Origin: Nitrospinaceae bacterium
GTDB lineage: Bacteria; Nitrospinota; Nitrospinia; Nitrospinales; Nitrospinaceae
Reading direction: 5' to 3'
Assembly (NCBI GenBank): GCA_965223665.1
Contig: OZ245011.1
Location: 4,180,044 to 4,244,043 of the forward strand
DNA length: 64,000 nt
The notes under the pieces are model-generated. The model had not been told where the DNA came from, made no database searches, and was given only the letters and a program-made list of their open reading frames with translations. Both the position numbers and the translations under genes were made by a program. Positions 35,743-53,241 of this stretch are shown here, piece after piece; the first letter of the stretch is position 1, and the number at the start of each line of letters is the position of its first letter.

Positions 35743-38700
35743 ATGAGGGTTGCCTGGATGCAAAGAAAATCACTTTTTTCATTTTTATATTTTTTCAGAG
35801 ATAAGAAGCCAACCGGCATATTTAGTATATCTGTATTAATTTTTTTGATCGGCTTTTGGCCCTCCTATTTATATGCGCTTCCACAAGATGGAATTGTCAA
35901 AGGCGGCTCTGTAACTATTGAACAAATAAATTCTGATCATCTTGAAATAAATCAAATCACAGATCGAGCGATTATAGATTGGACTAGCTTTGACGTTCTT
36001 TCCAATGAGCATGTGAACTTTCAACTTCCTTCCTCTAATTCAGTAAATCTAAGTCGAGTGACAGGGGGAACTCAATCTAACATTTTTGGAAAATTAACAT
36101 CAAATGGGAAATTGATGCTCATTAACCCCAATGGAATATTATTTGGACCCCATTCTCAAATTGATGTTAACAGTTTGATTGCGACGACAAATGATATTCG
36201 TAATGAGGATTTCCTAGAAGGTAATTACAGTTTTTCACTTAATAAACCCATTTTAAGATCCATAACCAACCAAGGGAGAATTACAGTAGCGGAAGGTGGG
36301 TTAGCTGCACTAGTGGCGCCGGGTGTGATTAACGAGGGAACCATTGAGGCAAGACTAGGTCAAGTGTATTTAGGATCAGGTAAAACATTCACTTTAGATT
36401 TATATGGTGATCAGTTAGTAAGTCTAGGAGTGAATTCCCAAAGTGCTGAAGATGTGTTTGGCGTAACAGGAAACCGATTATCTTCTCTAATTAATAATTC
36501 AGGAAATATTATTTCTGATGGAGGCACCGTCATCCTCGATGTTAAATCAGCAAAAGGCTTAGTGGACCAATCCATCAATATGTCAGGAATCATCCAAGCT
36601 AGAACCATAAAGGAAAATAACGGTGAAATTTATCTTTTGGGTGGAGAGGAAGGTGAAGTTGCGGTCACAGGAAAATTGGATGCGTCAGGTTATCTAGAGG
36701 GTCAAACAGGTGGGAAAGTTTATGTATTAGGGAACGAATTGAGTCTTTTCAATAATGGGACCATAGATATTTCTGGGGATTCAGGTGGAGGTTCATTATT
36801 TTTTGGAGGCGATTATCAGGGAAAGGGAGAATTGCAAAGAGCATCTGATGTTTTTGTAAGTGATGGGGCAAATATTTTTGCTGACGCTGTAAATTTTGGG
36901 GATGGTGGGCGAACCATATTTTGGGCTGACAGAAGAAATCGTTTTTATGGAAGAGTTAGAAATAGAGGAGGATTGTTTAGTGGTTCAGGAGGATTTGTAG
37001 AAATTTCCGGACGAGAGGAATTGTATTTTGATGGCTCGGTAGATACTTCAGCGTCAAATGGAAAAGTTGGAACTTTATTGTTAGACCCGGGAGATATTGA
37101 AATTGTAAATGGATCAGGATCACCTGATGATGGTGAAGCCGCAGATGGCAATGCGTCTGTTTCATCAAGTGGAGCGATTTCGTTTTCTATTTCAGAAAAC
37201 CAATTAGAATCACTTTCCTCAAATACAAATATTCATCTTTTTGCAAGAAATAATATTTTTCTTCGCAACTTGTCAGACAATAATTTGGAATTAAAACAAA
37301 CTGCGGGACAATCTGTTCGATTAACAGCTGAAACCGGAAATATCCAATTTAGTGACACCAATGACCAAATTAGTACAAATGGTGGCAGTGTGACCCTTCA
37401 AGCTGGAGAGGATATGATCCTAGGAAAACTCAATGTGGGTGGGGGAAATGTAACATTGTTAGGAAAAGAAGGAGGAGCTATTAGCTTGGGGACTGGATCC
37501 ACAGGATTAAAGTTAAGTAATGAGGAATTATCCAAAATAACAGCAAATAATTTGGTCATTGGAGGTAATATTGTTGGAGAGAGAGCAGCTAAAATAGAGG
37601 TGCAAGGAGTCACTGGAATAAATAATATTACCAATCAATTAACACTAAACTCTCTAAGTGAAATTAGTACGATAGGTGGAGCCCCACTCGGAAAAATACA
37701 TTTCAAAAATACAGCTTCTACTATTGGAACAGGATTATTTTTAAACTCTAACCTAGAGACAAGGATAGACTCTAACCTTACAACTTTTGGCAATTTATCT
37801 ACGGGAGCAACATCACCTCTTGTATTGGGAAATAATTTAACTATTTCTTCTACTAACGGTAAGTTGACTTTAGGATCAATTTCTAATTCTTCTGCGGGAT
37901 TATCCTTATTGGCAGCAAATGGAATTACGTTAAATGAAAAGCTTACTACTGCAGGAACTACCATTCTAAATGCAGATTTGGATAACAATGGATTCGGAAT
38001 ATTTTCCCAAGCATCTGGAAAATCTTTAATTACAGGTAATGGTTCTTTATCGATAATAGCAGGGTCTTTAAATTTAAACGGTTCATTAAATAGCGGGACT
38101 GGTTTAACAACATTCATTGCTTCAAATGGAAAAAGCATAGGTTTGGGATTGGCGAGTGGTGATCTATCTCTAGACTCAACTCTCTTGTCTTCTCTGACTT
38201 CCGGTGGACTTGTTTTAGGAAATGGATTAGGAGCTATTCAAGTTAACGGGGCTAGTATTTCTTCAGGACTTACCTTAAATGGAAATTCAAATTCGTTCAT
38301 TGGATCAAACTCTTTGCTATCTGGGTTGGTTGTAAATGGACCAACAACAATCCACGGAGTCGACCTGATATCGACAGGAGGAATAATCGATTTTAATGGA
38401 ACTGTGACGTTAAACTCAAGTCCTGCGCAAATTCATAGTAATAATCAAAATATATTTTTTCAAAGTACTTTAGAGGGAAGTCAAAATTTAAATATAAATG
38501 CTGGTACAGGAATCGTTCAATTTCAAGGAAATATTGGAGACAATCTTCCATTATCAGGTCTAAATATTACAGGTCCTTCAATAATTAAAGGAATTAATAT
38601 CAGTACAGCTGGAGGAAATATAATCTTTAATGATAATGTTTCAATTGATTCAAATACGGTTCAAATAAGTACCGGGGCGGGAGGAGGAGACATTGATTTT

Positions 38701-40698
38701 CATGGGACTGTAGATGGAACTCAAAACTTAACTTTAAACTCCGGGACAGGAACGATAAATATTGATGGTAATGTTGGAACTAATACAGCACTAAAAAGTT
38801 TTACCGTAACGGGATCTACAGTTGTTAGTGGTGCTAATATTTTAACTTCTAACGGAGATATAACTTTTAACAATGCTCTCGGTTTAGATACTGGGACGGT
38901 TGAAATTAATTCAGGTACAGGGATAGGCGATATAAATTTGGGCAATACGGTAGATGGAGCCCAAAACCTAACCTTAAACTCAGGGACAGGAACGGTGAAT
39001 ATTGATGGTAATGTTGGAACTAATACAGCACTAAAAAGTATTACCGTAACCGGATCTGCGGTCGTTAGTGGTGCAAATATTATTACTTCCAACGGTAATG
39101 TCACTTTTAATAATGATGTGACCTTAGATAACGGTCCTACGCAGGTAAATACGGGTGGCGGATTAGGTAATATCACTTATTCCCAGAATATCGATGGGAA
39201 CCAAAATTTGACTTTAAATTCTGGGAATGGGTCCATTCAAATTGGGGGGAACGTTGGAAATACTTCCACTTTGGAAAATTTAAATTTAAATGGGAACACT
39301 TCATTTAGTGGCACTTCCATAAAAACCAATAGCGGAATAACTATCAGTGGAAGTCTTGATGCTAATAACCCGACCATTTTAAATTCAGATTCTGACAGCA
39401 ATGGAACAGGTGATCTTGTGGTTTCAGGACCGATAAATTCTAAAGATTTAACTTTTATATCTAATGACATTAGTTTGGGAGATACCTTAACAAGTAGTGG
39501 AGATATTATATTTAAGGTGTCTGATGGAGGAACCATGGGATTAGGTGATGGTTCTGGAGATTGGTTGTTGGATCAAACGGAATTGAGTTTTATAAATACC
39601 AATAATTTGACAATAGGTAATTCTACTGCGGGAAACTTAACTGTCGATAAAATAGCTATTAATGGAAGTAAAATTATTCAGGATATTTCTTTGATTTCAG
39701 GAAATTCTATTTTGGTAAATAACACATTAAATTTCCCGGGAAATTTGAATGTTACTTCCGGAAATAATATTTCCGATTCAGGAGCAACTTTTATAGTGGG
39801 GGGTGACGCCACTTTTAGAACCACTGGTACAAACCAGTCTATTAATTTATCAAATGTTGGCAGTGTTTTTGGGGGTCAAATTCGATTTTTTACATTGGGC
39901 AACTCTGGAGATGTTTTAGTTAATAATTCAAACGCAATTTTTGTAGGAGATTCAATAATTGGTGGAAATTTAACAGCAACTTCTAATGGAAATATTTCCC
40001 TTAACGGGGTGGTGATAAGTTCAACGGGTAGCAATCCACTCATAAGTTTAACATCCACTAATGGCTCAGTTTTGGATGGTGGATCAAGCTTTGGTTTGGA
40101 TATTGATAATCCTAATGGAACTTTAATTGCAAGTACTTTTAATGGATTTGGAACGACAGCAGACCCACTAGAAATTAGAGTGAATAACGTAAATATAGGC
40201 AATAATAACTCGGGTCCAGTAAATATATATGAGCTAGACGGTCTGAATATTGTGGGGATTAACCAAGGTGGAATAAATGAGGATGTGTCAATATCCTATT
40301 CTGGAAATATTTCTGGTCAAGAAAATGTAATGTTGAATGGAGGTCAGTTGGTTCTAACTGACAGGTTTAATGTTAATCAAGTTTTTGGAAATACCGGTAA
40401 AACATTGAAGGGTCTGGCTCTAGAAAGGACCATAAACAATTCTAGTGAGATTGGTCAATATTTTGATTTTGGAGATTGGTATAAAGAAAATATTACTTTA
40501 AATAAAGCGGCTTTTCAAAAAAGTGCAATTGCTTTTCCCTTTGTCAGGAATGCATTTATTAAAAAATATCCTGTTTGGGTTGTTAAACGACCAGTAAGTA
40601 AAAGGAACCCCAAGACCGAATTAGCAAGGTCTTTTTCCAAAAAGAATTATAAGAAAAGAAAACTCAAACCATTTTCCTTAAGGAATAAAGTAAATTAA
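35743..40698 (+). CDS. TpsA filamentous haemagglutinin-like exoprotein
   Basis: Signal peptide then LPQDG; TPS domain (IIDWTSF, LSRVTG, NGKLMLINPNGILFG), GGFVEISG, GTLLLDP; long Gly/Asn/Ser/Thr-rich beta-helix; adjacent to tpsB. Confidence 0.92.
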   Translation: MRVAWMQRKSLFSFLYFFRDKKPTGIFSISVLIFLIGFWPSYLYALPQDGIVKGGSVTIEQINSDHLEINQITDRAIIDWTSFDVLSNEHVNFQLPSSNSVNLSRVTGGTQSNIFGKLTSNGKLMLINPNGILFGPHSQIDVNSLIATTNDIRNEDFLEGNYSFSLNKPILRSITNQGRITVAEGGLAALVAPGVINEGTIEARLGQVYLGSGKTFTLDLYGDQLVSLGVNSQSAEDVFGVTGNRLSSLINNSGNIISDGGTVILDVKSAKGLVDQSINMSGIIQARTIKENNGEIYLLGGEEGEVAVTGKLDASGYLEGQTGGKVYVLGNELSLFNNGTIDISGDSGGGSLFFGGDYQGKGELQRASDVFVSDGANIFADAVNFGDGGRTIFWADRRNRFYGRVRNRGGLFSGSGGFVEISGREELYFDGSVDTSASNGKVGTLLLDPGDIEIVNGSGSPDDGEAADGNASVSSSGAISFSISENQLESLSSNTNIHLFARNNIFLRNLSDNNLELKQTAGQSVRLTAETGNIQFSDTNDQISTNGGSVTLQAGEDMILGKLNVGGGNVTLLGKEGGAISLGTGSTGLKLSNEELSKITANNLVIGGNIVGERAAKIEVQGVTGINNITNQLTLNSLSEISTIGGAPLGKIHFKNTASTIGTGLFLNSNLETRIDSNLTTFGNLSTGATSPLVLGNNLTISSTNGKLTLGSISNSSAGLSLLAANGITLNEKLTTAGTTILNADLDNNGFGIFSQASGKSLITGNGSLSIIAGSLNLNGSLNSGTGLTTFIASNGKSIGLGLASGDLSLDSTLLSSLTSGGLVLGNGLGAIQVNGASISSGLTLNGNSNSFIGSNSLLSGLVVNGPTTIHGVDLISTGGIIDFNGTVTLNSSPAQIHSNNQNIFFQSTLEGSQNLNINAGTGIVQFQGNIGDNLPLSGLNITGPSIIKGINISTAGGNIIFNDNVSIDSNTVQISTGAGGGDIDFHGTVDGTQNLTLNSGTGTINIDGNVGTNTALKSFTVTGSTVVSGANILTSNGDITFNNALGLDTGTVEINSGTGIGDINLGNTVDGAQNLTLNSGTGTVNIDGNVGTNTALKSITVTGSAVVSGANIITSNGNVTFNNDVTLDNGPTQVNTGGGLGNITYSQNIDGNQNLTLNSGNGSIQIGGNVGNTSTLENLNLNGNTSFSGTSIKTNSGITISGSLDANNPTILNSDSDSNGTGDLVVSGPINSKDLTFISNDISLGDTLTSSGDIIFKVSDGGTMGLGDGSGDWLLDQTELSFINTNNLTIGNSTAGNLTVDKIAINGSKIIQDISLISGNSILVNNTLNFPGNLNVTSGNNISDSGATFIVGGDATFRTTGTNQSINLSNVGSVFGGQIRFFTLGNSGDVLVNNSNAIFVGDSIIGGNLTATSNGNISLNGVVISSTGSNPLISLTSTNGSVLDGGSSFGLDIDNPNGTLIASTFNGFGTTADPLEIRVNNVNIGNNNSGPVNIYELDGLNIVGINQGGINEDVSISYSGNISGQENVMLNGGQLVLTDRFNVNQVFGNTGKTLKGLALERTINNSSEIGQYFDFGDWYKENITLNKAAFQKSAIAFPFVRNAFIKKYPVWVVKRPVSKRNPKTELARSFSKKNYKKRKLKPFSLRNKVN
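38470..39300 (+). repeat. About four tandem 240-bp (80-aa) repeats inside TpsA
   Basis: attgatggtaatgttggaactaatacagcactaaaaagt occurs identically at 38761 and 39001; protein unit G.QNLTLNSG.G...I.GNVG recurs; outer bounds approximate. Confidence 0.85.
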
Positions 40699-41585: not shown

Positions 41586-43010
41586 TTAGCTGGACATCTT
41601 CGTCCAACTTTCTACTTTGCAGTTTTGCTGATTTAAAACAGGATAAATTGTAAATAATGGGGTATTGAACGGAACAAATGCAGAGTCAGTTCCTGGGCTG
41701 AGAGTTAAATGAATATTAACAAAATTAAAACTTAATCCTTCCTGCCAGGGTTCTTTCGTATTTTCGATATAAGCTTCTAATTTGTCCGCAGCATGCGAGC
41801 GAGTCATTAATCCTGATCCACCCTGCAAGCCATATTCATATAAATCAGGAGCACCTTGAATTAATACTGAAATAGTAGATGCATCAAACCATACTTTAAA
41901 ATTGGATACGATTTGAAGGAAATTCCCTAAACAACCTGTTCGCTGTAAAACTGCCTGAGGGTAAGCAAAGGCAGGGGGAATATTAGGATCATTTCCTTGA
42001 TATTTGAAATCCTCTTCTTTGACTTTGGATACTGAAAAAAACAGAAGGTTTTCATCATCCATAGAAATGTCTGTTACTTTTCCATCGTTAAAACTGCAAA
42101 GCTTATCATTTTCATAAGAGAGGGGAAAAGAATACCCCATCTTGGAATAGTAAATGCGTAAGCCAGCTTCCAACGGATCTTCAGGTTTTCGACTTATTTT
42201 TATGTCAAAGGGTAGCATGAGATGAAATGCATTGGTACGAGCATTCATAAAGGGGCCGCAAGCTCCTGGGAATTCTTTGTGAACATCTTTATTGTCTGGA
42301 GAAAACTTTCTGGGGCCACCTGAAAAATGTTGGGCCGACTTAGCTTCCTGAGTTAAAGCGTATTTTTCTTTATAATATTCAGCGGCTCTTTTTTGGGCAA
42401 CGCTCAAAATGTATTGCGGAACATCCGACTGAACAATTATTTGCTGCTTATCAATACCTTTTTGGGCAGGCTTCGGATTTAGGGCTTCGTTATAAAGATT
42501 CAGTTCTTTCTCGGTTTTTTTTGCTTCGAAGGTTAATTGTCTTGCTAACTCCGGGTTGTGGTATTGGGTTTGCCCTAATAAACTTTGAGCTTTTTTCAAT
42601 AGATCCAGTTTTGCAGAATAACGCTTGGGTTCTGCAGAAAATGATTGAACTGTTGCCATGATAAGATTGAATTGTTCTTCTGGGAGAAGTCCAAGTTCTT
42701 GGAGGTTATTTTCTTTAAAAAAAGTCCAGGCAAGAGGTCCAAAAGATTCTTCTCTTTGGATATTGAGTGTTAATAAATAATTTAAATAAGCTCGTGCGGA
42801 ATCTTCAGCGTATTTTTTTTTATCAGTGATTTTGCACATGGGTAGAACATCGGAAGAGTTTATTTCAACTAAGTCTAAACCTTGATCCTTAGCCAGGGAA
42901 AGAGCGTCTTCCAGGTCATATGTTCCTAATCTTTTACCATCGTTATCTATAAGGGCTACCCGCTCGGCAGATATATCTCCATTCACTCGCTGCGACAATT
43001 TTCTCTCCAA
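41586..43010 (-). CDS. Fusion of a translation initiation factor 3 N-terminal domain to a large uncharacterised domain
   Basis: RVNGDI.AERVALIDNDG..LG....DAL.LA..QGLDLVEI......PMCKI.D matches IF3-N; no IF3-C domain; TTG or ATT start. Confidence 0.75.
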   Translation of the reverse strand: MERKLSQRVNGDISAERVALIDNDGKRLGTYDLEDALSLAKDQGLDLVEINSSDVLPMCKITDKKKYAEDSARAYLNYLLTLNIQREESFGPLAWTFFKENNLQELGLLPEEQFNLIMATVQSFSAEPKRYSAKLDLLKKAQSLLGQTQYHNPELARQLTFEAKKTEKELNLYNEALNPKPAQKGIDKQQIIVQSDVPQYILSVAQKRAAEYYKEKYALTQEAKSAQHFSGGPRKFSPDNKDVHKEFPGACGPFMNARTNAFHLMLPFDIKISRKPEDPLEAGLRIYYSKMGYSFPLSYENDKLCSFNDGKVTDISMDDENLLFFSVSKVKEEDFKYQGNDPNIPPAFAYPQAVLQRTGCLGNFLQIVSNFKVWFDASTISVLIQGAPDLYEYGLQGGSGLMTRSHAADKLEAYIENTKEPWQEGLSFNFVNIHLTLSPGTDSAFVPFNTPLFTIYPVLNQQNCKVESWTKMSS

Positions 43011-43258
43011 AATTTTCTACATTAAAGTAAAAACTAGGCAATGGGTTTTTAAATTTTCTTTTTGGCAATTATGCATGGAAACCCCTGGTTTTCCAAGAAA
43101 ATCTTAGGATTGGTAAGGGTTTTCTTACTTTTGGTGGTGTTTAAGGAGAGAATTCAAATATATAAAATATTGAAATTGTTCACTATCTTGAAGAAATTTA
43201 TGAAGCTGTTTAAGAATTCATATGATTTCGGGATTTATAGCTAGGTCCTTAGATTGAA

Positions 43259-45283
43259 CTACTTCTCCCAAAACAGATTTTTAATATTATCATCCTCAAT
43301 TGCAGAAATTGCCATGACCAACCAAGCGGTTCCAGCAACGGAGGGGTTTTTGGAGAACTGGAACTTTAGATTTTCGGTGGCATAAGGCAAACCTCCCTCA
43401 GAATCCTGAAGATGAATCATTGATTTCAAAATTTGCTCCGCTTTGACTTTGTCGCCGATTTTTATTTGTGCCATGGCAACCCCCAGGGAACCTTCCGGCC
43501 AAATCATGGGCAACTCATTCCAGTTTTTTCCGGGATCTTCAGGAAAAAATAAGGAGTTAATTTCGGGTTCTTCATATAAAGGCAAATCAATGTAGGGTTT
43601 ATAACCAATGTATCCATTAAGGTTGACTTGGTATTTTGAGGATGATTCCAAAGCAATTTTGGCTTTTTTATTTTCTCCAATGGCCAAGAGAAACATAGCA
43701 CCCCATGAAGAGCAATCTAAAGCTTTTGCGGAATCTGGGCCATCCAATCGGTGCCCTCTATTAAGTTGACCAATCTGTTCATTCCATGATTTTTCAGATA
43801 TTGATTGTTTGAGGAGATTTGCAGAAGAATTAAATTTTTTGCTTCCGGTGAGTCGTGCTAAATCTCTAAGGAAAAAATAAATATCGATATTGTGCTCCAT
43901 GCTGGCCCATTGGATTGACCCAGGAGCAAATACTTCTTCCAGATTATTTGTTTCTACATTTTTTTTGTAAATATAAGACCCCTCGCCGCCAGTGAATAAA
44001 CCATAACGAGGATCTTTGCGGTTTGTTATTTGCCGCAATAAAATTTTGTCAGCGATTGATTGAGCAATTTTAATAAAATTTATTGCCACATGGTCCTGTT
44101 GTAGAAGACTGGGATTATCAACAAGCCTTGACTTTAAATAGTAAGTAATTGCATAACCTAACCAGGCTGAAGCCCCGCTCCGATTGATTGCCCCTCCATG
44201 GTCATTTTCATTTGGCCAGGAATTATGTGTATTGAAAGTGAACCATAGATCGCCATCCCGGGATAATACTCGAGAGGCAGCTTCTATTACTTTTTCAGCC
44301 AGAGAATATTCTCCAACCATGGAAAAGGCTATAATGGCCAATGCATTGTCATAAATCGAAGCTTTACTGAAGACATAACGATAGGCTTCGGCATCTTGTG
44401 GTACACGGTAACTGATTAATAAATTTCTTCGGTCTTGAACTGGTTCGGGAACGATGGCGTTGGGAACACTTTGGGCTTTAAGCCAATCTATAGCTTTTTG
44501 TTTGTAAGGGGACCATTGGGTGGTGCCCGAAAACTTTGCTTGTTTTATCACTTTGGGTAACTGAGGAGCAAATTTAGCTACCTGGTCCACTTTTTGAGTA
44601 TCCATTTTTAAATTAGAGAGTTCCTTTATAAAAGCAATTGCAGTTTTTTCAGCTTCCTCAATTGAGGGATCAATGCGAACAGACATTCGAAGCATGGTCA
44701 TGCCGTCCATAATGTTGTGCCTCGAATTGGGCCACATATACCAATAGAGAATTAAATGTGCGAAATTATCTTTTTTTGCTATGGCGTAGCGAACTTGAAA
44801 ATTCTCTTCCCGGATTTTTAGGGATTTATAGGACCTTTCTTCAATTTTCCATCCGTCTCCTATGTAACAAACCTCAGGAGTGTGAAATAGACTTTCATTG
44901 GTGCCATGAGCCGCAACAAAATATACGGCCTGTTCATTTTTTGGATTTTCATAAAAACGAAAATAAAGAATGTTTTTGTCATCCGTTTCAATATTCTCAC
45001 CTTTCCACTCCCCTAAGGAAAAAGGAATATTTTCCAGATTTTGCTTTTTCAAATAATCAGTATTTGCGACAAACTTACCTTCATGCGAGGTCGAAAAGTA
45101 AAAGGAGGTGTCTGAAGTGAATTTATAAACAAAATCAGAAGAAACTGGTTTCACCTTTTTATCATATTTAATTGCTTTTGAAGTTGGATTGGATTCCGAA
45201 CAACCAAAAAGAGCTACTAGGCCAAACAAACAAAAATAGATTAAAAGGGTAATGACATGTTTTTTACAAGGTAGGTTTTGCAT
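43259..45283 (-). CDS. Lipoprotein: exosortase-associated EpsI-like domain fused to a six-hairpin glycosidase-like domain
   Basis: Lipobox LFGC; IP..LGEWKG, FHTPEVCYIGDGW and LILYWY are EpsI hallmarks; C-terminal YDNALA, SMEHNID, ALDCSSW, WPEGS, SVAGTAW helical-barrel motifs. Confidence 0.75.
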   Translation of the reverse strand: MQNLPCKKHVITLLIYFCLFGLVALFGCSESNPTSKAIKYDKKVKPVSSDFVYKFTSDTSFYFSTSHEGKFVANTDYLKKQNLENIPFSLGEWKGENIETDDKNILYFRFYENPKNEQAVYFVAAHGTNESLFHTPEVCYIGDGWKIEERSYKSLKIREENFQVRYAIAKKDNFAHLILYWYMWPNSRHNIMDGMTMLRMSVRIDPSIEEAEKTAIAFIKELSNLKMDTQKVDQVAKFAPQLPKVIKQAKFSGTTQWSPYKQKAIDWLKAQSVPNAIVPEPVQDRRNLLISYRVPQDAEAYRYVFSKASIYDNALAIIAFSMVGEYSLAEKVIEAASRVLSRDGDLWFTFNTHNSWPNENDHGGAINRSGASAWLGYAITYYLKSRLVDNPSLLQQDHVAINFIKIAQSIADKILLRQITNRKDPRYGLFTGGEGSYIYKKNVETNNLEEVFAPGSIQWASMEHNIDIYFFLRDLARLTGSKKFNSSANLLKQSISEKSWNEQIGQLNRGHRLDGPDSAKALDCSSWGAMFLLAIGENKKAKIALESSSKYQVNLNGYIGYKPYIDLPLYEEPEINSLFFPEDPGKNWNELPMIWPEGSLGVAMAQIKIGDKVKAEQILKSMIHLQDSEGGLPYATENLKFQFSKNPSVAGTAWLVMAISAIEDDNIKNLFWEK

Positions 45284-46091
45284 GCGGTTGTCTCATTCCT
45301 TTTATCGTTAATAACCAAAAGATAAATAAAATTGTGAAGGTTAATATAAAAAATAATATGCTTCCCAAATCGTGCCAAAAGTCAGCCGCCACGGCTTCGC
45401 CAAAATAAATTGCCACAAAAAAGAGGGTTAAAATTCTTAATAAATTTCCGATCATCGCTATGGGGATGATCAGTGAATATAACAGGACTTTCCTTTTAGT
45501 AGAGGTATTAGTGAAGTAAACCACTGGGATCATCAATGTTAACAGTGCAATGATGGATTGAATCCCACTGGAAGGAGCTCCAATTACAAACGTCGCATTG
45601 GGAAGATATATGGTAGCTCCCTCGGTGATGATTTCGTAATTTAAAAATTGCAATATTGAGGTCGCTAAATCGGCCATAAAAAATTGAAGAAAAGCGGTAA
45701 GGTCGGAAAGAAACGGAAAAGGTACCGCTATTATTGGAAATAGAATGGCAAATCTAAGATTATGGGCGGGGATTTTATTATTAAATAAATAAGTTATCCC
45801 AAGGGCCGTAAGAAAAATTGGGATAGTTTTGAAATAATAAAAATTTAATACATAGCCAATACCATATAAAACTACACTTCCAAGAATCCAATAAATCCAC
45901 TTATTTTTTTCGGTATAGTTTTTTGTAGAATGATAAATATTATAAATGGCCATGCCAACTGAGGCAAATAAGACCATAAATCCATGTTTATAAAATGGAT
46001 GGGTAATCCAAGATTCAATCAACCATTGTGAGGGTTCGTGATATACGAATACTCCAACACAGAGAATCAGGAACGAAATGATTGCCTTCAT
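45264..46091 (-). CDS. Exosortase/archaeosortase-family membrane protein
   Basis: W...W...PFYKHG, AVPFP, LQ...A..A..IL, EG.TI.LP..TFVIGAPSSG..S, NLLRI, FWHD; about 8 TMs; next to an EpsI-domain gene. Confidence 0.88.
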   Translation of the reverse strand: MKAIISFLILCVGVFVYHEPSQWLIESWITHPFYKHGFMVLFASVGMAIYNIYHSTKNYTEKNKWIYWILGSVVLYGIGYVLNFYYFKTIPIFLTALGITYLFNNKIPAHNLRFAILFPIIAVPFPFLSDLTAFLQFFMADLATSILQFLNYEIITEGATIYLPNATFVIGAPSSGIQSIIALLTLMIPVVYFTNTSTKRKVLLYSLIIPIAMIGNLLRILTLFFVAIYFGEAVAADFWHDLGSILFFILTFTILFIFWLLTIKGMRQPHAKPTL

Positions 46092-46378
46092 ACATTGTGG
46101 GTTGGTTTTCTCTTTCTTTGTTTAGAGAAATAATAAATGCTTCCAGCAATTAAAATAAAAGCACTCCCGCCAGTAACCATATATTCAATTGGAACTTCAG
46201 AAACTGTAGGAGGTGCGTCACATTTTTTCCCACTGCATGAGTGCCAGGGTTTGTGATGCGCTTCCGCTGAGGAAAATGGGTTATTTGAGGTAGAAAAAAT
46301 GGGCAGTATTAAAAGTGCTGCATAAAAAATAATTGTGAATATCCCAGCAGACAATTTTTTTATTAAATTCATTTTCAT
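46088..46378 (-). CDS. Small secreted protein with a C-terminal sorting-signal-like tail (VPIEY-TM-basic); putative exosortase target
   Basis: AAGGAGG RBS at 46383-46389 before ATG 46378; signal peptide, short polar core, VPIEY, TM, KQRKRK; stop overlaps the exosortase start (ATGA). Confidence 0.75.
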   Translation of the reverse strand: MKMNLIKKLSAGIFTIIFYAALLILPIFSTSNNPFSSAEAHHKPWHSCSGKKCDAPPTVSEVPIEYMVTGGSAFILIAGSIYYFSKQRKRKPTHNV

Positions 46379-46392
46379 AAAACCTCCTTGAA

Positions 46393-47325
46393 CTACAATG
46401 ACCCCTTTACATTTACAACAGCCCCTACTGGGTATAACCACTGCAATAAAGGATCAATAGTCAATATTAATCCTTTTCCTTTATCATTATTAGTTTCAGG
46501 GATAGTAGTAAAAAGGTCAATATCCCAAAACTTTCCTGAAGAACCATCCCAGTCATCAATTCCTGAAATAGACTTGCCATTTACTAAATTTCCTGACCCA
46601 TTCCCAGCGCGCCCATGTCCCCCAATGAAACCTACAGAATTTAGTTCCCAATTAGAGTTAGGAATATCAAGGTTTATGGGGATATCGTAAACTTCACCTG
46701 GTTTTAATATTTGCATACCAGCCAGAATCTTCAGTGAGTTTTTAGTTTGAGCTTTTGGATTTGCAGTTATTACAATAAGTGCCCAACCTGCAAGGGTATA
46801 TGGATCTTTCCCATTAGGATTGATAGCGTGAGAGGAAAGATTCTTTACGGAATAAGTTCCGTTTTTAGAAACAAATTGGGTCACATCAGCCCAAGCCGTA
46901 TAAAGAATACCGGATGAATTTTTTTTCCATATTTTATTTGCTTGAACCAAATGCTCCAGGTTCTCTGGAGATGTAAAAGCAATTTTTTTAGCAGTTTTTG
47001 TGGGATTATTTAGTTCTCCTGCCCAAAGAAGAAACGCTTTTTTAATTGGAGATGAAACGTTTAATTCAGCCTGACTAATTTTTTTAATTTCTTTATCGAC
47101 CAGAAAGCTTTCACCTATAATCGTGAAATCAAGCCCTTTCGAAGTTTCAGAGAAAATCGTTTCAAAATCATTTATGGTTTTATTTTTTATTGATGTTAAT
47201 TCCGTTGAAAAAGAATATTGCGGATAACTAATTAATAGAAGTAGGACGATAATTTTAAAAAATAATTTAAATGTGTTTTGTGGAAAAAAAAAGTGGTCTT
47301 GTTCTATCCAATAAAAATTTATCAT
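46393..47325 (-). CDS. Secreted beta-rich protein, DUF3344-like
   Basis: Signal peptide; IKKAFLLWAG, ADVTQFV...GTYSV.N, AGWALIVI and FWDID motifs recall DUF3344-type surface domains. Confidence 0.55.
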   Translation of the reverse strand: MINFYWIEQDHFFFPQNTFKLFFKIIVLLLLISYPQYSFSTELTSIKNKTINDFETIFSETSKGLDFTIIGESFLVDKEIKKISQAELNVSSPIKKAFLLWAGELNNPTKTAKKIAFTSPENLEHLVQANKIWKKNSSGILYTAWADVTQFVSKNGTYSVKNLSSHAINPNGKDPYTLAGWALIVITANPKAQTKNSLKILAGMQILKPGEVYDIPINLDIPNSNWELNSVGFIGGHGRAGNGSGNLVNGKSISGIDDWDGSSGKFWDIDLFTTIPETNNDKGKGLILTIDPLLQWLYPVGAVVNVKGSL

Positions 47326-49274
47326 CAGAATCTCAATGTAATATAGGTTTGAATATTTTTAGTAATGTCTTCATCATTCCCGGTTTCAAATCCAAGTCGA
47401 GCATCAATGGTCCATGAAATACAATCGGTGATATTCCAAGTAACAAATGCTGTGAATAGTTGCTCTATTGCATCGTCCAAAGAGTTATGGGTGATGATGT
47501 AATCAATTTCGTAGTTAAATATTTTTTTAAATTCGTCTTGAAGGTTGAATATGAAGCTATGTTCAGTTTCGTCAGGGTTGGTAAGATAATTTAGTTGGTA
47601 CTCAATTTGGATTCTGTCATAAAAGGGCAAACGATACCGAGGACGGAAGATGTAGTTTTGCCTTAATCCTGTCCCGTTTGAAAAATCATTTAACGCGACA
47701 ACGGCCAAAATGGAAAAGAAAGGATCGAAGTCCACATCGTAAGAGGCCAAGTAAGTATTGATTGATTCGATTTTTGCATTTCCAGAAGTGATATCTACAA
47801 AGAGGTCACGTGAAAAGGAAGTATTGAATAAATGGTTTTTATATTCTTTGGATAAAAGAAAATATCCCGCGTGCTCAGTCTGAGCTTTAAGTAAATTGAA
47901 AGAATTATTATCTTCATTTGTGTATCTAAATAAATCATATCGAAATCGGATTTTAAATTGTTCTGGAAGCTTTTGCTCTAAGCCAAAAGACCCTGTATTG
48001 GCGTTTACGTTGAAATCGATTAAATTATTAACTATATCTAATTGCTTTTGCTTTACACGTTGTAACCGTAGTTGGAATTTTGTGGTTGCGGATAGTCTTT
48101 GATAATAATCAAGTGTGTGACGTAAATCTCTAAAAATAATATTAAGGTTTTTGGTTTTTGGGATTTGATCTCTAAATTCGAAAAAGTTGAATCTGGTTAT
48201 TAACATTGGAGCCATGGCTCTTTTTAAACGTTCCATGGCTTGTTTAGCGTCTATATTGTTTGGATCAACATTCAGCGCTTTTAAATATTGTTCTTCTGCA
48301 AGATCCCATTGATCGTTAAAAAAATACAAGTTTCCCAATCCCACCAAAGCATCCACATTGTTGGGAGCAATTTCTAAAGCTTTCTTGAATAATTTTAGAG
48401 ATTCTTCTAATTTACTTTGCCAACTGTAAACCCTACCCAAAGCAATGTAGGACGAAATGTCTCCTTGGGCCAAGGCAACCGATTTTTGTAATTCGGTGAC
48501 GGCATCGTCTAACCTGGCCGTCCAACTGTAAAGAGTTCCCAGCATTGCCCGTACATCTTGTCTTTCGGGATCAATTTCTCTTGCCTTTTCAAGGTATTTA
48601 ATAGCATTCTCATGATCTCCTTGGTGGCTTTGGAGGATTCCAATTCCCATATAGGCTTCTACGTTTTTTGGGTCTTGTTCCAGTATTTCTTGGTAAAGCG
48701 CAATTCCATCTTTTGGATTTTTCATCCACTTATATGTGGTGGCTAATGCTTTTAAAGCTTCTATATTATTAGGATAAATTTTGAGGAGTTTTTTAAAGTA
48801 GATTACACTTTGGTCAAACTTTTCTTGCCAGGCTGTAACCTGTCCTAAAAGAAAAAGTAAATCAAATCGCTCTGGGTAAACCTCGTGTAAAGCTTTTAAT
48901 CCTTTTTCTGCCTCAGCATGATTTCCATCCCAAGCACTTAGGCGTAAAAGACCAATCTCTCCGTCGGGAAGGTCCGGTCGTAATTCTTTAATTTTTTTAT
49001 AAGTGGTGCGAGAAGCTTCAAACTTTTTTTGCCAACTTAAAACCTGAGCTAATCCCATCCAAGCTTCAATATCTTTTTCGTTAGCCTCAATAAGTTGTCT
49101 ATAAAGAGCTTCAGCTTCACTATAGTTTCCCTGCCAGCTTGTTTGGCGAGCTTGATTATAAATTGCGTCACGGTCTAACGCATAAACTCCATATACGAAT
49201 AAGCTTGGTGATAGAAGCAATGATAGAAGAAAAAAGGAAAAAATCTTTCTTAGGCTATATAAAGAAATTTTCAA
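47325..49274 (-). CDS. TPR-repeat protein with C-terminal outer-membrane beta-barrel (architecture like PgaA/YaiO/BcsC)
   Basis: Start moved to TTG 49274 (AGGAG RBS); about ten TPRs with recurring 'SW' (LAQVLSWQ, LGRVYSWQ); C-terminal amphipathic strands ending YITLRF. Confidence 0.75.
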   Translation of the reverse strand: MKISLYSLRKIFSFFLLSLLLSPSLFVYGVYALDRDAIYNQARQTSWQGNYSEAEALYRQLIEANEKDIEAWMGLAQVLSWQKKFEASRTTYKKIKELRPDLPDGEIGLLRLSAWDGNHAEAEKGLKALHEVYPERFDLLFLLGQVTAWQEKFDQSVIYFKKLLKIYPNNIEALKALATTYKWMKNPKDGIALYQEILEQDPKNVEAYMGIGILQSHQGDHENAIKYLEKAREIDPERQDVRAMLGTLYSWTARLDDAVTELQKSVALAQGDISSYIALGRVYSWQSKLEESLKLFKKALEIAPNNVDALVGLGNLYFFNDQWDLAEEQYLKALNVDPNNIDAKQAMERLKRAMAPMLITRFNFFEFRDQIPKTKNLNIIFRDLRHTLDYYQRLSATTKFQLRLQRVKQKQLDIVNNLIDFNVNANTGSFGLEQKLPEQFKIRFRYDLFRYTNEDNNSFNLLKAQTEHAGYFLLSKEYKNHLFNTSFSRDLFVDITSGNAKIESINTYLASYDVDFDPFFSILAVVALNDFSNGTGLRQNYIFRPRYRLPFYDRIQIEYQLNYLTNPDETEHSFIFNLQDEFKKIFNYEIDYIITHNSLDDAIEQLFTAFVTWNITDCISWTIDARLGFETGNDEDITKNIQTYITLRF

Positions 49275-49275
49275 A

Positions 49276-51216
49276 TTAATTCTCCTGTCGCTCCAGCCAT
49301 GGACGGTAACTTTCATAGGAATGAATGACAATTCCATAAAAACTTGAATATTTTTGTAACTCAAACCTTATGTGCTGGAGGACTTTTCTTAAATCTTTTG
49401 GTTCCAATTTATCAAAAGTTATTTTGCTTGAGGGAACGTTAACCACGCTTATTTGTTTTAAGATCTGAGAATCACTTTTGGGAAGATTCACTTTTGGAGG
49501 AATCCAACTCACTTGGACATGTTGATCATCAATAGTTTCTAAAATTATTTGCGAACCTTTACCTCTTCCATTTTGGGTGAATTCAAAGATTGTTTCATTG
49601 GGTAAAGGAACTGTTTCAAGACCAATAAATACTTTTTTACCTTTTTTCTCAGCATATCGTAACTCATCACTGCCGTGGGCAATGACACCATCGGCTCCAT
49701 ATGCAACGGTTCGGTAATCCATGATTCCAATGTTATCGACGATATCAATTATATGCTCACTGACTGGTCGCCCCCCCACTGCTGCAGTTGGTTCATAATA
49801 AATATTACGGCTGTCAAACCAAAAAGGAATATCAACACCCAAAACCAGGTTGGAATTTTTTGTAAGTATTTTGGATTTTTCAAGAAGTTCTAAATACTCC
49901 TTGAGTTTGTTTTCTTTGTTTACTCCAACAAAGGATGGTAATAAGTAAGGTTCAATGTCAAATCTGATTCCATAAAATCGCTCTGAATCATTTCCTCTCT
50001 CATTATATTGAGCGATCCTTTCAATAAGAGCCAATACACGTCCGTGCCATTCTCTTAAAGCAAAACGCGGATCTCCGTCTAAAGCATGTGTCTTAATATT
50101 GTTTTTGTGAAGACGCGAGATGAAGGAACGCATGTTTTTAGAATCCCAGTCTATTTCCCATTTATTTTGGTTTTTTTGTGCTTCATAGGGGATTTGGACG
50201 AATAAATCGGTTATTTTCTCTTTTTGACAAAAATCTAAAAGTTGATTGCTTTCCTTTTCGCTATTTAGAATTTTATTTGTTTCCCATAGCCACATTGCTT
50301 TTCGTATGGGGCGGTCCACTTTAAGTGTAATGGGGGGACTGGGGATAGAAATGTCTCTTTCTTGGGAAAAGGCTAGATCCTTTATCAGTATAGTGCTCTC
50401 GCCTTCACCTTTAACTTGAAAGACAACACTTGCAAGTTCTTTGCGATTTAATTTTTTGGGAAGTTTTGATAGAGGAACCCAAACTTGTTGCCATTTTTTT
50501 TGAATAGCTCCCTCTGGAATAAATGATTCAATATTCTCAATTAAAAGTGAATCTTCTTTTTTCTCCCAGATACGATCTGCCATTCGTAATTGAATTTGTT
50601 CTTTTCCTTTGATTCCATAAATAGAGAATGTCAAGAAGGAAAAAGGAGAGGTATCGAAGTATTTTCTTTGGCTAGGAGGAGATTTGAAATCAAACAAGTG
50701 AATCCAAAATCCAGAAAAACCAGGTTTCTTATTCTTATAAGTGAATGCTAAGCCAGGAGTTCCATCAGGTGATTTTTCAATTGAAACATTAGATTTGGAA
50801 GGAACCCTAGCAAATCCATTAAAATATCCTCCAAGTTTGTTTACATTCCCTTGATTAAATTGGTCAACAATATAAAAGTTATTGCTGAACGAAGGAGTTT
50901 TTCCTCGAGGACCGGCGGGATCCTTTAAGATGGGCTTTGATTTTCCAATATCATAAATTATTATGGATTCCTTTCCCTGAGCGTGAAGCAGGCCCATTCT
51001 GACATACCCTATTTCTGAGGAGTGACTCAGTCCCCAGTCAGAAAGGAGAATTTTTTTGTTAGGATAAGTTTGCCCGATAGCCTGGGAAGAGAAAACTCCC
51101 AAAATAATGGTGCAAATAATTAGGAATTCTACAAAATAGAAAAATTTGAGTTTGAAAGATAAAATTGGGAAGGATACGTCCCCTTTTTTTGGATTCATAT
51201 GTATAAATGTTTCCAA
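49276..51216 (-). CDS. Secreted protein: carbohydrate-binding-like beta-sandwich plus glycoside-hydrolase-like TIM barrel
   Basis: Signal/TM segment; DQFNQG..NKLGG, FSGFWIHL, WQQVWVPLS (CBM-like); AMWLWE, HALDGDP, GIRFDIEPYLL, DIPFWFD, IMDYR, IGLET, IHSY (TIM barrel). Start uncertain. Confidence 0.6.
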   Translation of the reverse strand: METFIHMNPKKGDVSFPILSFKLKFFYFVEFLIICTIILGVFSSQAIGQTYPNKKILLSDWGLSHSSEIGYVRMGLLHAQGKESIIIYDIGKSKPILKDPAGPRGKTPSFSNNFYIVDQFNQGNVNKLGGYFNGFARVPSKSNVSIEKSPDGTPGLAFTYKNKKPGFSGFWIHLFDFKSPPSQRKYFDTSPFSFLTFSIYGIKGKEQIQLRMADRIWEKKEDSLLIENIESFIPEGAIQKKWQQVWVPLSKLPKKLNRKELASVVFQVKGEGESTILIKDLAFSQERDISIPSPPITLKVDRPIRKAMWLWETNKILNSEKESNQLLDFCQKEKITDLFVQIPYEAQKNQNKWEIDWDSKNMRSFISRLHKNNIKTHALDGDPRFALREWHGRVLALIERIAQYNERGNDSERFYGIRFDIEPYLLPSFVGVNKENKLKEYLELLEKSKILTKNSNLVLGVDIPFWFDSRNIYYEPTAAVGGRPVSEHIIDIVDNIGIMDYRTVAYGADGVIAHGSDELRYAEKKGKKVFIGLETVPLPNETIFEFTQNGRGKGSQIILETIDDQHVQVSWIPPKVNLPKSDSQILKQISVVNVPSSKITFDKLEPKDLRKVLQHIRFELQKYSSFYGIVIHSYESYRPWLERQEN

Positions 51217-51366
51217 AAAAATTGGAAAGGATATTTAAAGTTTTTGTTTAGTAATTAGTTGATTTAAAGCTTTGATTTTAAAGTGATTACTATTCCAGTG
51301 TATTGGGGAGGGGATATTTTGTCAATTGGATAGTTATTTCAATTTAAGAAAAGGGATTTCATAATT

Positions 51367-51765
51367 TTATGTGTTTTCATCGGATTCTAGGCTGGGTATC
51401 AGTTCTTGGATTTTTTCTTGAAATTGGGTTCCAGAGAATGGTTTTAAAAGGTAGCCATCTATCCCGGCTTCCTGGGCCGTTTGTATTTTCTCGGATCGTG
51501 CTTCTCCGGTAAGTAATAAAAAAAGTAAATTTCTCAACTTTTCGTCTTTACGTATGGACTTAATTAACTCAAGGCCGGATAAGCCAGGTAATTGCCAATC
51601 CGCAATTACCAGGTCAAAGGATTCAGATTGTAATTTCGATAATGCTAGGGCACCATCTTCAGCGGTATCTAAATTAGTTAATTCTAATTGCTTTAATTTC
51701 CTTACCACTAACTCTAAAGAAGGCGGGTCATCATCTACTACAAGAATTTTTATGTTTGAAATCAT
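51367..51765 (-). CDS. Single-domain CheY-like response regulator
   Basis: ILVVDDD, IADWQLPGLSGLEL, LLTG, YLLKPF. Confidence 0.92.
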   Translation of the reverse strand: MISNIKILVVDDDPPSLELVVRKLKQLELTNLDTAEDGALALSKLQSESFDLVIADWQLPGLSGLELIKSIRKDEKLRNLLFLLLTGEARSEKIQTAQEAGIDGYLLKPFSGTQFQEKIQELIPSLESDENT

Positions 51766-51786
51766 TTTAAAGTAAGTAAGGTTTGA

Positions 51787-53241
51787 TTAAGGTTTGTAAC
51801 CCTTTACTTTTTCCAGTTCTGCATTTTTCCAGTTGGAACCATCTAGTTTAGTTCCAGTAAGGTTTGTGAAAAAAAGCTTTGCTCCCTCCAGGTTAACGTT
51901 AGTAAGGTTGGAGTGAGATAGATCAGCCTCATCAAGAGAAGTTCTATGTAAATCCGAATTTTCTAAGTTGCAATACGTCATATTGGATTGCTTCAACTTT
52001 GCCCCTCCAAAATCTGCCATTTGTAAATTAGCGCCCTTAAAGTTTGCTCCTATTAGGTTGGCACCAGTTAAAATAGAATTCACCATAGAGGTCTTTTTGA
52101 AAATAGATTCTTCGGCATGAGATCTACTTAGATCAGAGTTATCTAAAACCGCTTCTGAAAAGTCTGCGCCCTCTAAATTAGCATCACTAAGGTCTACAGC
52201 TATAAGCTTTGCTTTAACAAGTTTAGCACGGCTAAAGTCTGCTCCTCGTAAGTAAGCATTTTTTAAATTAGCTTCGTTTAATTTTATTCGGTTTAAATGT
52301 GCTCCATCAAGGTTAACTTTAACCAGATTCGCTCCATTCAAATCCGCGATGTCCAAAGAGGACTCTCTTAAATTAGAGTTTTCCAAGTCAGCCCGTCGAA
52401 GGATAGAACCATTTAAACGAGCGCGGGTCATATCACAATCGATTATTTTTGCTTCAGTGAGATCGGCGCCGGTTAAGTCAACCCGCAAAAGTTTGGCTTT
52501 GATAAATTTAGCACCAAATAGGCGAGAACCCTTTATCTCAGCCCGTGTTAAGTTTGTTTCAGAAAAATTTGATTCATAAAATACAGCCACACTAAGTTTT
52601 GAATCCGAAAGATCGGCCTGTGTTAAGTTTGCACCCTTAAAGTTAGCCCGAGATAAATCAGAACCTTTAATTTGAGCTTTATTCAGGTCTGCCCTTAGAA
52701 AGTTTGCTCTGTTGAGACGACTTTCATTTAAATTGACTTCGTTTAGATTTGCCTCTTGAAGATCAGCTTTGCGTAGGTCTGATCTTTCTAAAAGAGCCTT
52801 ATTTAAATTAGCGCCGATTAATTTAGTTTCATTTAATATGCTATCAGTAAAATTGGCTTCACTAAGATCCGCCTGGCTTAGATCGGCCTCAGATAAATCT
52901 GAATCAGAAAGATCAGTCCCAACCAATTTAGAACTACTTATATTAGCGCCATAAAAATTTAAGTTAGATAAATCTAATCCCGAAAGATCTAAATTTTTGA
53001 GAGATGGAGTTTCATCTTCATCTTCTTCATTAGCGGAAGATTCTTCATCTTCGGCAGAATCAGAAGCATCCGGATCATCGATCATTTCTTCCTCAGAAGA
53101 GTCCTTTATTTCCTCAGATTGTTCCTCTTCTTCATTGTCATCCTCTACATCTTCATATAATGCTTCTTCCTCTTCGCGGTCACGCAACTCTTTCAACTGG
53201 TTTAAAATTTCTTCAACTTCTTCTCGTGTAAGATCAGGCAT
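51787..53241 (-). CDS. Long pentapeptide-repeat protein with an acidic N-terminal insert
   Basis: About 400 aa of continuous A(D/N)Lxx repeats preceded by an Asp/Glu-rich stretch. Confidence 0.93.
   Translation of the reverse strand: MPDLTREEVEEILNQLKELRDREEEEALYEDVEDDNEEEEQSEEIKDSSEEEMIDDPDASDSAEDEESSANEEDEDETPSLKNLDLSGLDLSNLNFYGANISSSKLVGTDLSDSDLSEADLSQADLSEANFTDSILNETKLIGANLNKALLERSDLRKADLQEANLNEVNLNESRLNRANFLRADLNKAQIKGSDLSRANFKGANLTQADLSDSKLSVAVFYESNFSETNLTRAEIKGSRLFGAKFIKAKLLRVDLTGADLTEAKIIDCDMTRARLNGSILRRADLENSNLRESSLDIADLNGANLVKVNLDGAHLNRIKLNEANLKNAYLRGADFSRAKLVKAKLIAVDLSDANLEGADFSEAVLDNSDLSRSHAEESIFKKTSMVNSILTGANLIGANFKGANLQMADFGGAKLKQSNMTYCNLENSDLHRTSLDEADLSHSNLTNVNLEGAKLFFTNLTGTKLDGSNWKNAELEKVKGYKP

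Follow-up and report, generated by a model that had tools for sequence, protein, structure and literature searches.

A 96-residue protein of a Nitrospinaceae bacterium as the probable dedicated substrate of an adjacent serine-variant exosortase

In a 64,000-nucleotide (nt) stretch of the genome of a Nitrospinaceae bacterium (assembly GCA_965223665.1, contig OZ245011.1, positions 4,180,044 to 4,244,043; hereafter, the window), a gene for a protein of only 96 amino acid residues (aa) is found on the minus strand, directly upstream of a gene for an exosortase-family protein. Our analysis suggests that the small protein is probably the single dedicated substrate of the adjacent enzyme, which carries a serine at the position of the usual catalytic cysteine, and that both belong to a six-gene, glycan-related envelope cassette; its processing is predicted from sequence. 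This model is preferred because of the purifying selection on the small gene, its adjacency to and co-occurrence with the exosortase gene, the uniqueness of its tail in the genome, the family identity of the enzyme, the invariance of the active site, and the restriction of the serine to one clade.

A small gene under purifying selection

The open reading frame (ORF) occupies 46378..46088 of the minus strand, with its ATG at 46378 and its TGA at 46090..46088. The AAGGAGG sequence preceding it (Table 1) is the only full Shine-Dalgarno sequence in the cassette, the other five genes having none, and this fits a stoichiometric substrate that would be made in excess over its enzyme. A longer version of 117 aa, starting from the GTG at 46441, is unlikely, since AAGGAGG sits 4 nt before the ATG at 46378. 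The preceding gene, which encodes a 310-aa protein, ends 14 nt ahead of the start, and the stop codon overlaps the exosortase start as ATGA (46091..46088); thus, the small gene and the exosortase gene are translationally coupled. A scan of positions 43000-52000 for promoters and terminators gave no signal (21 promoter-like sites vs 29.2 expected; 8 terminator-like sites vs 8.2). The best promoter-like site, TTGACA-17-TACACT at 51325-51297 on the minus strand, upstream of the first cassette gene, is not counted as evidence here.

In Pfam and NCBIfam (June 2026), no model matched the 96-aa protein at E ≤ 0.1, and in the ESM Atlas its top feature score was 0.84, under the lead threshold of 0.9, and no family emerged. 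Nevertheless, the comparison with a congeneric genome clarified that the ORF is a genuine gene under purifying selection. A word-based search found one homologue there, 78% identical, and for the whole gene the proportions of non-synonymous (pN) and synonymous (pS) differences were 0.128 and 0.541, respectively (pN/pS 0.24). In codons 38-68, there are 12 synonymous and no non-synonymous codon differences (pS 0.62, pN 0), and the core residues 41-55 are thus identical despite this divergence. The part encoding the signal peptide shows 15 non-synonymous and 4 synonymous codon changes, and therefore only its general character is constrained.

A shared signature behind hypervariable cores

Residues 41-61 of the protein read HHKPWHSCSGKKCDAPPTVSE and are followed by VPIEY, a hydrophobic helix, KQRKRK and five further residues. 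Both in this sequence and in 28 aligned members of the family (the basis of all counts in this section), a generic PEP-CTERM-like tripartite architecture is seen: an N-terminal signal peptide with a predicted cleavage site, a signature abutting the transmembrane (TM) helix, and a terminal basic cluster. An earlier note on this DNA, made from the letters alone, had described exactly this layout (a 40-aa leader ending in AEA, a core, VPIEY, a TM helix and KQRKRK), an adjacent sortase and a dedicated target. All of these points are borne out here, but its choice of VPIEY as the sorting signal is not, since the position of the E in IEY is occupied by E, Q, R, H or K among the members, and the conserved residues are those of PPTVSE-x-P-x-x-YM. 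M1, P56, P57, E61 and G71 are invariant, and A38, T58, V59, P63, Y66, M67 and G79 are nearly so. The family signature can be written as PP[T/S][V/I][S/A/D]E-[L/F/V]-P-[I/V]-x-[Y/T]-M, and it is continuous with the membrane helix.

An A-x-A motif stands at the aligned site in 25 members, and the remaining three have shifted candidates at least 2 residues upstream (AYA in P0071, AFA in P0081 and IFA in P0085; G, L and P numbers are our handles for genomes, loci and proteins). The core between A-x-A and the tag is 13-56 aa long and hypervariable between genera. Several kinds are found: His-rich cores with a Cys pair (in this genus and some others), four-Cys cores, Lys-Pro repeats, Gly/Asn repeats, and long runs of Lys, Arg, Gln and Glu. 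Basic residues outnumber acidic ones in 26 of the 28 cores, His is found at the predicted mature position 2 in 19 members, and at least two Cys occur in 22. Not one core residue, and hence no metal ligand, is invariant across the members. Since cores lacking His or Cys exist, metal binding by these residues is not a family trait.

Some relatives carry tandem targets, at 9069-10283 of L054 (G006), 9060-9864 of L055 (G009), 9231-9992 of L053 (G040) and 3081-3959 of L064. In these arrays, the first copy is His- or Cys-rich (the first copy of L064 has no His), while the last copy is long and rich in Lys, Arg, Gln and Glu; this looks like a recurring division of labour among the paralogues. Most of the tandem-locus copies also have a C-[RK]-[RK]-N-P-x-x-C-[KQ] box just ahead of PPTVSE.

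One target beside one enzyme

A hidden Markov model (HMM) of the tail, searched against the 67,797 stop-to-stop ORFs (at least 30 aa) of the same genome, found the 96-aa ORF alone (E 6.4e-24; the next best match had E 0.26). This HMM replaced a loose regular expression ('P-x-E/D ... TM ... basic'), which had picked up 14 ORFs, mostly ordinary membrane proteins. In six-frame searches of 61 related genomes, including this one, the small gene was clearly found in nine and the exosortase clade (E ≤ 1e-80) also in nine, and the two occurred together in eight. Both exceptions are assembly breaks: in G018 the contig begins inside the exosortase gene, and in G019 a 1.8-kb contig ends just after the target. 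In all nine loci that include the upstream DNA, 1-3 targets lie directly upstream of the exosortase gene: one in G000, G001, G002, G016 and G020, two in G009, G040 and L064, and three in G006. The small genes keep this fixed position across genera in which they share only 32-47% identity. A 'dedicated system' is defined as one enzyme paired with one adjacent target (PMC3237569; bioRxiv 10.1101/2023.06.07.544157). The present pair agrees with this definition, as the single target adjoins its sorting enzyme and is co-distributed with it, the two mismatches lying at contig ends.

The family was also sought more widely. A scan for clade-specific peptide patterns in one genome for each of 185,579 species gave eight loci, all from metagenome-assembled genomes of Nitrospinaceae, Nitrospinales or Nitrospinota, and one family member is labelled 'Nitrospina sp.' in one protein source. 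When 1.84 billion representative proteins were searched with a profile built from 13 targets, 21 matches were obtained at E ≤ 1e-3 (16 at E ≤ 1e-10), of which 18 bear the tail. These are all 91-131 aa long, with no large protein among them. The seven matching clusters that were looked up are unnamed or called 'hypothetical protein', one having an empty name. Among the tail-less matches, P0087 (536 aa) is a repeat protein covering 27 profile positions and is spurious, whereas the metagenome proteins P0083 and P0086 are broken copies: one stops in a Lys/Arg/Gln core, and the other matches the G019 copy exactly except for a frameshift immediately ahead of PPTVSE. These breaks are probably assembly or sequencing errors. 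A match of the target profile in G004 (E 9e-4) was also rejected, being an out-of-frame ORF within a 297-aa gene and having no TM helix. As far as these searches reached, the small-gene family and its cassette appear to be restricted to Nitrospinota.

Some 40 kb ahead of the window, the same genome encodes a second exosortase (G000:C1:4139563-4140342, L035), a 575-aa fusion with an EpsI-like C-terminal part and the usual Cys motif LPCSGAR. The PEP-CTERM model, searched against the whole genome at E ≤ 1, gave a single match, at the end of a 746-aa ORF (G000:C1:4136724-4136795, L003) about 3 kb from this second exosortase. Two separate sorting systems, each of one enzyme and one target, thus seem to operate in this organism. 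The second, Cys-type exosortase recurs in G001, G002, G023, G040 and G052, and nothing matched it in a tblastn search of plasmids.

A serine in the exosortase active site

The 275-aa partner clearly belongs to the exosortase superfamily, scoring 133.8 bits with PF09721 (cut-off 25.7; E 9.2e-39) and 57.1 bits with TIGR04178 (cut-off 23). It falls outside the named subtypes that were compared (XrtA, B, C, D, N, O, Q, T, V and W, and the cyanoexosortases): the best scores were 99.9 against a cut-off of 313 for XrtV and 95.2 against 208 for XrtA. With the general exosortase model TIGR02602, it also stays below threshold (81.7 vs 105.55).

At the aligned position of the catalytic Cys, the enzyme has Ser174 in the context A-P-S-S-G-I-Q, a point that the earlier note had overlooked. 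PSSG is found in all 66 clade proteins of the protein collection and in all nine genomic copies. In contrast, Cys (LPCSGAR) is found in all six second-type exosortases of the same order, and Cys also stands in this column in the three outgroup exosortases from three other phyla (an annotated xrtV of Novosphingobium, another enzyme from Isosphaera and a third encoded on D. vulgaris pDV). In an alignment of 49 sequences, P173, S174, S175, G176, I177, S179, N216, R219, I220 and H240 are invariant, while no Cys is invariant anywhere. Of these, N216, R219 and H240 align with the NxLR and the H of the outgroups, so that the Arg and His of the triad are retained. For exosortases and archaeosortases, a triad of Cys, Arg and His with 'nearly perfect conservation' has been proposed (bioRxiv 10.1101/2023.06.07.544157), and in the archaeosortase ArtA, Cys173, Arg214 and Arg253 are critical (PMC9263693).

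The invariance of the active site in the 49 sequences indicates that the site is under selection and is not decaying, and a functional serine variant is thus more likely than a dead enzyme. The basic segments TNTSTKRK (a loop) and KGMRQPHAK (the C-terminus) are read as cytoplasmic, and by the positive-inside rule Ser174, Arg219 and His240 would therefore lie at or near the periplasmic leaflet. A literature search found no mention of a Ser-type exosortase, although Haft 2012 (PMC3256604) lies outside its coverage and earlier notice is possible. A search of the PDB sequences with the exosortase profile gave no match at E ≤ 1.

The gene cassette

The features of the small gene and its cassette are listed in Table 1. 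In the five relatives compared over 14-20 kb, the six genes always stand in the same order; the flanks differ in four of them (all but the congener G001).

Table 1 Positions in the window of the elements of the small gene and of the other cassette genes
Feature	Position	Strand	Basis or remark
EpsI-type exosortase partner (DUF3485) with C-terminal (alpha/alpha)6 glycoside-hydrolase-like domain, 674 aa	43259..45283	-	PF11984, 52.5 bits
Exosortase-family protein, 275 aa, outside named subtypes	45264..46091	-	PF09721, TIGR04178; Ser174 codon 45570-45572
Small gene: rest of TM helix (G71 invariant, G79 near-invariant), KQRKRK cluster, short tail; residues 69-96 and stop	46088..46174	-	TGA overlaps exosortase ATG
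Small gene: conserved sorting signature PPTVSE-V-P-I-E-Y-M-V, residues 56-68	46175..46213	-	Conservation among 28 sequences
Small gene: variable core HHKPWHSCSGKKCDA, residues 41-55	46214..46258	-	3 His, Cys pair
Small gene: Sec-type signal peptide, residues 1-40	46259..46378	-	K-rich n-region, 20-aa hydrophobic region, A-E-A at -3/-1; cleavage predicted
Shine-Dalgarno sequence AAGGAGG	46383..46389	-	4-nt spacer to ATG of 96-aa gene; read directly
Conserved secreted protein, 310 aa	46393..47325	-	No Pfam or NCBIfam match; double beta-sandwich, CBM-like C-terminal half
Tetratricopeptide-repeat (TPR) protein, unassigned C-terminal half ending ...ITLRF	47325..49364	-	TPR families; outer-membrane barrel suggested by the C-terminal Phe only
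646-aa protein with CBM30-like region and weak GH97-like similarity; first cassette gene	49276..51216	-	PF21582, 28.7 bits (cut-off 27); PDB 10yv_A, E 0.001; synteny

In the 674-aa EpsI-type protein, the C-terminal 425 residues were modelled by AlphaFold2 (AF2) as an (alpha/alpha)6 barrel, with a mean predicted local distance difference test (pLDDT) score of 78.4. Foldseek related this domain to dextran dextrinase, the MmpH polysaccharide hydrolase, cellobiose phosphorylases and invertases (probability 1.00, TM-score ~0.55-0.60). The 310-aa protein has 82 homologous clusters, labelled 'hypothetical protein' or unnamed. Its confident AF2 model (pLDDT 85.7) consists of two beta-sandwiches, the C-terminal one of which resembles carbohydrate-binding modules (CBMs) and BcsB (VIA Z ~9; the tool's stated background is 7-8). 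Foldseek hits of this model to double jelly-roll capsid proteins, bicupins and PNGase F (TM-score 0.20-0.26) were set aside as reflecting a generic two-sandwich shape and not kinship. The most conserved blocks of the 310-aa family are GGHGRAGNGSGN, a WDGS-GKFWD-D stretch and DPLLQW-YP, and its invariant residues are G235, G236, G241-S244, G264, W267, D268, D270, D291-W296 and P299. Its distribution appears identical to that of the exosortase clade.

A 100-aa ORF on the plus strand (46388-46690) overlaps the 310-aa gene in antisense and has counterparts in relatives (for example, L005 1745-2101 and L006 1679-2020). It is taken as a shadow frame of the conserved 310-aa gene and not as a gene in its own right.

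Comparison with known sorting systems

The closest general likeness is to the PEP-CTERM/exosortase systems (XrtA-EpsH with EpsI), with which the present one shares the signal peptide and the signature/TM/basic tail, the PF09721 enzyme and the EpsI (DUF3485) partner. An eight-TM enzyme and a polysaccharide-type gene setting with a TPR protein are further shared points (PMC12188702; bioRxiv 10.1101/2023.06.07.544157), and PEP-CTERM-type signals likewise have their signature directly against the TM helix (bioRxiv 10.1101/2023.06.07.544157). However, the signature here is PPTVSE-x-P and not P-E-P, a single micro-substrate takes the place of many proteins, the catalytic Cys is replaced by Ser, and the enzyme scores far below the XrtA cut-off. 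In agreement with this, the small protein, which reads PPTVSEVP at this site, gave no hmmscan match to the PEP-CTERM model (TIGR02595) at E ≤ 0.1 or E ≤ 10. Among 13 members searched at E ≤ 10, only weak matches of the LPXTG-anchor type were obtained (6 of the 13, best E 0.063), with no exosortase-type CTERM model, PID-CTERM included. VPDSG-CTERM and VPEID-CTERM were likewise not among the matches of these 13 members, although the HMMER filters may hide very weak ones. The VPDSG-CTERM/XrtC and VPEID-CTERM/XrtE systems resemble the present one in general layout and in a Pro shortly ahead of the helix, but the tail fits neither HMM, the enzyme scores 35.2 against the XrtC cut-off of 300, and 'VP..E' is not conserved.

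A genome-unique target beside a sorting enzyme is also the arrangement of other dedicated systems, namely the GlyGly-CTERM/rhombosortase pairs and JDVT-CTERM/MrtJ (PMC3237569; bioRxiv 10.1101/2023.06.07.544157). The present system differs from them in that its enzyme is of the exosortase family, its signature is another, and some relatives have 2-3 tandem targets. Among the named subtypes, XrtV (NF035943) with the V-type EpsI scores best, with the enzyme (E 1.5e-28) as well as with the EpsI part; nevertheless, the enzyme remains well under the XrtV cut-off, and at the PSSG position of this clade the annotated xrtV of the Novosphingobium plasmid reads ACSG. Archaeosortase A, which acts on PGF-CTERM proteins, belongs to a homologous superfamily, and its tripartite signal is exchanged for a new lipid anchor, so that the family can couple cleavage to transfer (PMC9263693; bioRxiv 10.1101/2023.06.07.544157). 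It differs in being archaeal, in having large S-layer glycoproteins as substrates and in requiring Cys173, whereas here the substrate is tiny and Ser stands at the nucleophile position. What is new here is the PPTVSE-x-P signature, the clade-wide Ser, and a family of hypervariable cores in a conserved six-gene cassette.

Proposed processing and alternative explanations

In the model that we consider probable, the pre-protein would be exported by Sec, and signal peptidase I would cut after A-E-A. The C-terminal helix and KQRKRK would then keep the short peptide in the inner membrane. Since the basic tail is expected to be cytoplasmic by the positive-inside rule, PPTVSE-V-P would be placed at the periplasmic face. 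The exosortase, with Ser174, Arg219 and His240 on the same face, would cut in or beside the signature and so remove the anchor. The product would be a short, mostly cationic peptide of about 21-23 residues here and, in relatives, of 13-56 variable residues plus the motif. It might be released or transferred to an acceptor, with export via the TPR/outer-membrane protein. As the cassette has three carbohydrate-type folds and this TPR/outer-membrane protein, a glycan is the most plausible acceptor or partner, the fold matches being moderate.

A bolder version of the dedicated-substrate model, which we regard as conceivable but doubtful, makes the enzyme a peptide ligase, the first natural one with a serine nucleophile among exosortases. 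It would join the new C-terminus of the hypervariable micro-peptides (after PPTVSE) to a glycan, and a peptide-capped or peptide-crosslinked exopolymer would be exported via the TPR/outer-membrane protein. Handling of the glycan would fall to the fused EpsI-(alpha/alpha)6 domain together with the CBM-like neighbours, and each genome would supply 1-3 mostly polycationic micro-peptides in a layout resembling that of ribosomally synthesised and post-translationally modified peptides (RiPPs).

Several points weigh against the dedicated-substrate model. The missing Cys is the equivalent of the critical Cys173 of ArtA (PMC9263693), so that inactivity or a different mode of action is conceivable for the enzyme. 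No sequence is common to the variable cores, and a shared 'cargo' function can therefore not be read from them. The predicted signal-peptidase site lies 12 residues past the 20-aa hydrophobic region, which makes an unusually long c-region. The conserved cassette contains no recognisable glycosyltransferase or synthase, and the link to glycans is one of fold resemblance only (TM-score ~0.6; Z ~9 vs a background of 7-8). Finally, the sequencing runs found to contain this stretch are four DNA-type runs of one study, with no RNA run among them.

The first of these points is the starting point of the main alternative, which seems unlikely to us: the small protein would stay uncut as a permanent, membrane-anchored partner or pseudo-substrate of a Cys-less exosortase, its tail docked in the substrate groove and its cationic periplasmic head serving as a regulator or scaffold for the glycan-related neighbours. 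Besides the serine found in 66 of 66 clade proteins and the importance of Cys173 in ArtA (PMC9263693), the conserved Gly residues of the tail and TM helix (G71 and G79) are as expected in helix packing. However, Ser174, Arg219, His240 and their surroundings do not look like a decayed active site, being invariant in the 49 sequences. Furthermore, serine is a competent nucleophile in many protease clans. The tripartite layout and the gene order also match those of dedicated sorting systems (PMC3237569).

The earlier note had favoured a mature peptide of about 21 aa that is chiefly a Cu/Ni/Zn-binding or disulfide-looped signal, the exosortase being merely its maturation protease. Its His/Cys-rich core is real in this member, which has three His and a Cys pair within 15 residues, and in a subset of the family (at least two Cys, as a pair just before the tag, in 22 of the 28 members; His at mature position 2 in 19). 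An N-terminal X-His motif is able to bind Cu(II), and the core is 100% conserved in the congener although pS is 0.62. Nevertheless, His is missing in 9 members and the Cys pair in 6, and several cores, including those of tandem paralogues, are purely Lys/Arg/Gln-, Lys/Pro- or Gly/Asn-rich, with no shared ligand pattern. In addition, none of the six cassette genes was recognised as coding for a metal transporter, sensor or receptor in family or fold searches. As the common denominator of the family, this function therefore fails, and as an account of the system it is quite improbable; for this genus, the peptide may still be a metal-binding or signalling one.

Less probable still is a secreted polycationic antimicrobial or bacteriocin-like peptide of RiPP-like logic, with the exosortase as the maturation protease and the TPR/outer-membrane protein as the exporter. 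The hypervariable, mostly cationic cores between conserved ends, the 2-3 tandem copies in G006, G009, G040 and L064, and the frequent Cys pair would suit it. However, genes for immunity, an ABC exporter or modifying enzymes are missing from the conserved cassette, carbohydrate-type folds are found in the neighbours, and the cores are of low complexity and not amphipathic. Lastly, the ORF is short, matches no Pfam or NCBIfam model and is hypothetical or unnamed in every source, but its being a chance open frame is for practical purposes excluded by the strong Shine-Dalgarno sequence, the pN/pS of 0.24, the 31-codon stretch free of replacements, and the conservation at a fixed position across genera.

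Other genes in the window

Three further proteins of the window may be mentioned. A 474-aa protein (41586-43010, minus strand) matches the N-terminal domain of translation initiation factor 3 in its N-terminal 70 residues (PF05198, E 7.7e-18), while no match was obtained for the other ~400 residues. The congener has a copy with 93% identity, but in more distant relatives the protein does not belong to the cassette. A 1651-aa secreted repeat protein (35743-40698, plus strand; 86% in the congener) has an N-terminus that, by eye, is like the two-partner-secretion/haemagglutinin-type domain. A 484-aa protein (51787-53241, minus strand; 91% in the congener) has an acidic N-terminus followed by pentapeptide-like repeats.

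Implications

The host phylum Nitrospinota comprises the main marine nitrite oxidisers, whose envelope and aggregate biology is poorly known. For the exosortase family, according to Haft, one-step transpeptidation is unproven (bioRxiv 10.1101/2023.06.07.544157), and the present system addresses the questions of what the acceptor is and whether exosortases are transpeptidases. With its single substrate of about 21 residues and its compact six-gene cassette, it constitutes a minimal model for the acceptor question. If the ligase reading is true, the acceptor of the exosortase transfer would be readable directly by mass spectrometry on this unique substrate. The clade-wide change from Cys to Ser is, furthermore, an unplanned natural experiment on the catalytic mechanism, in which an ester acyl-enzyme might be trapped more easily. 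The system thus defines an unnamed sorting signal of the PPTVSE-x-P type, an unnamed exosortase subtype, and an unannotated, conserved family of 310-aa proteins.

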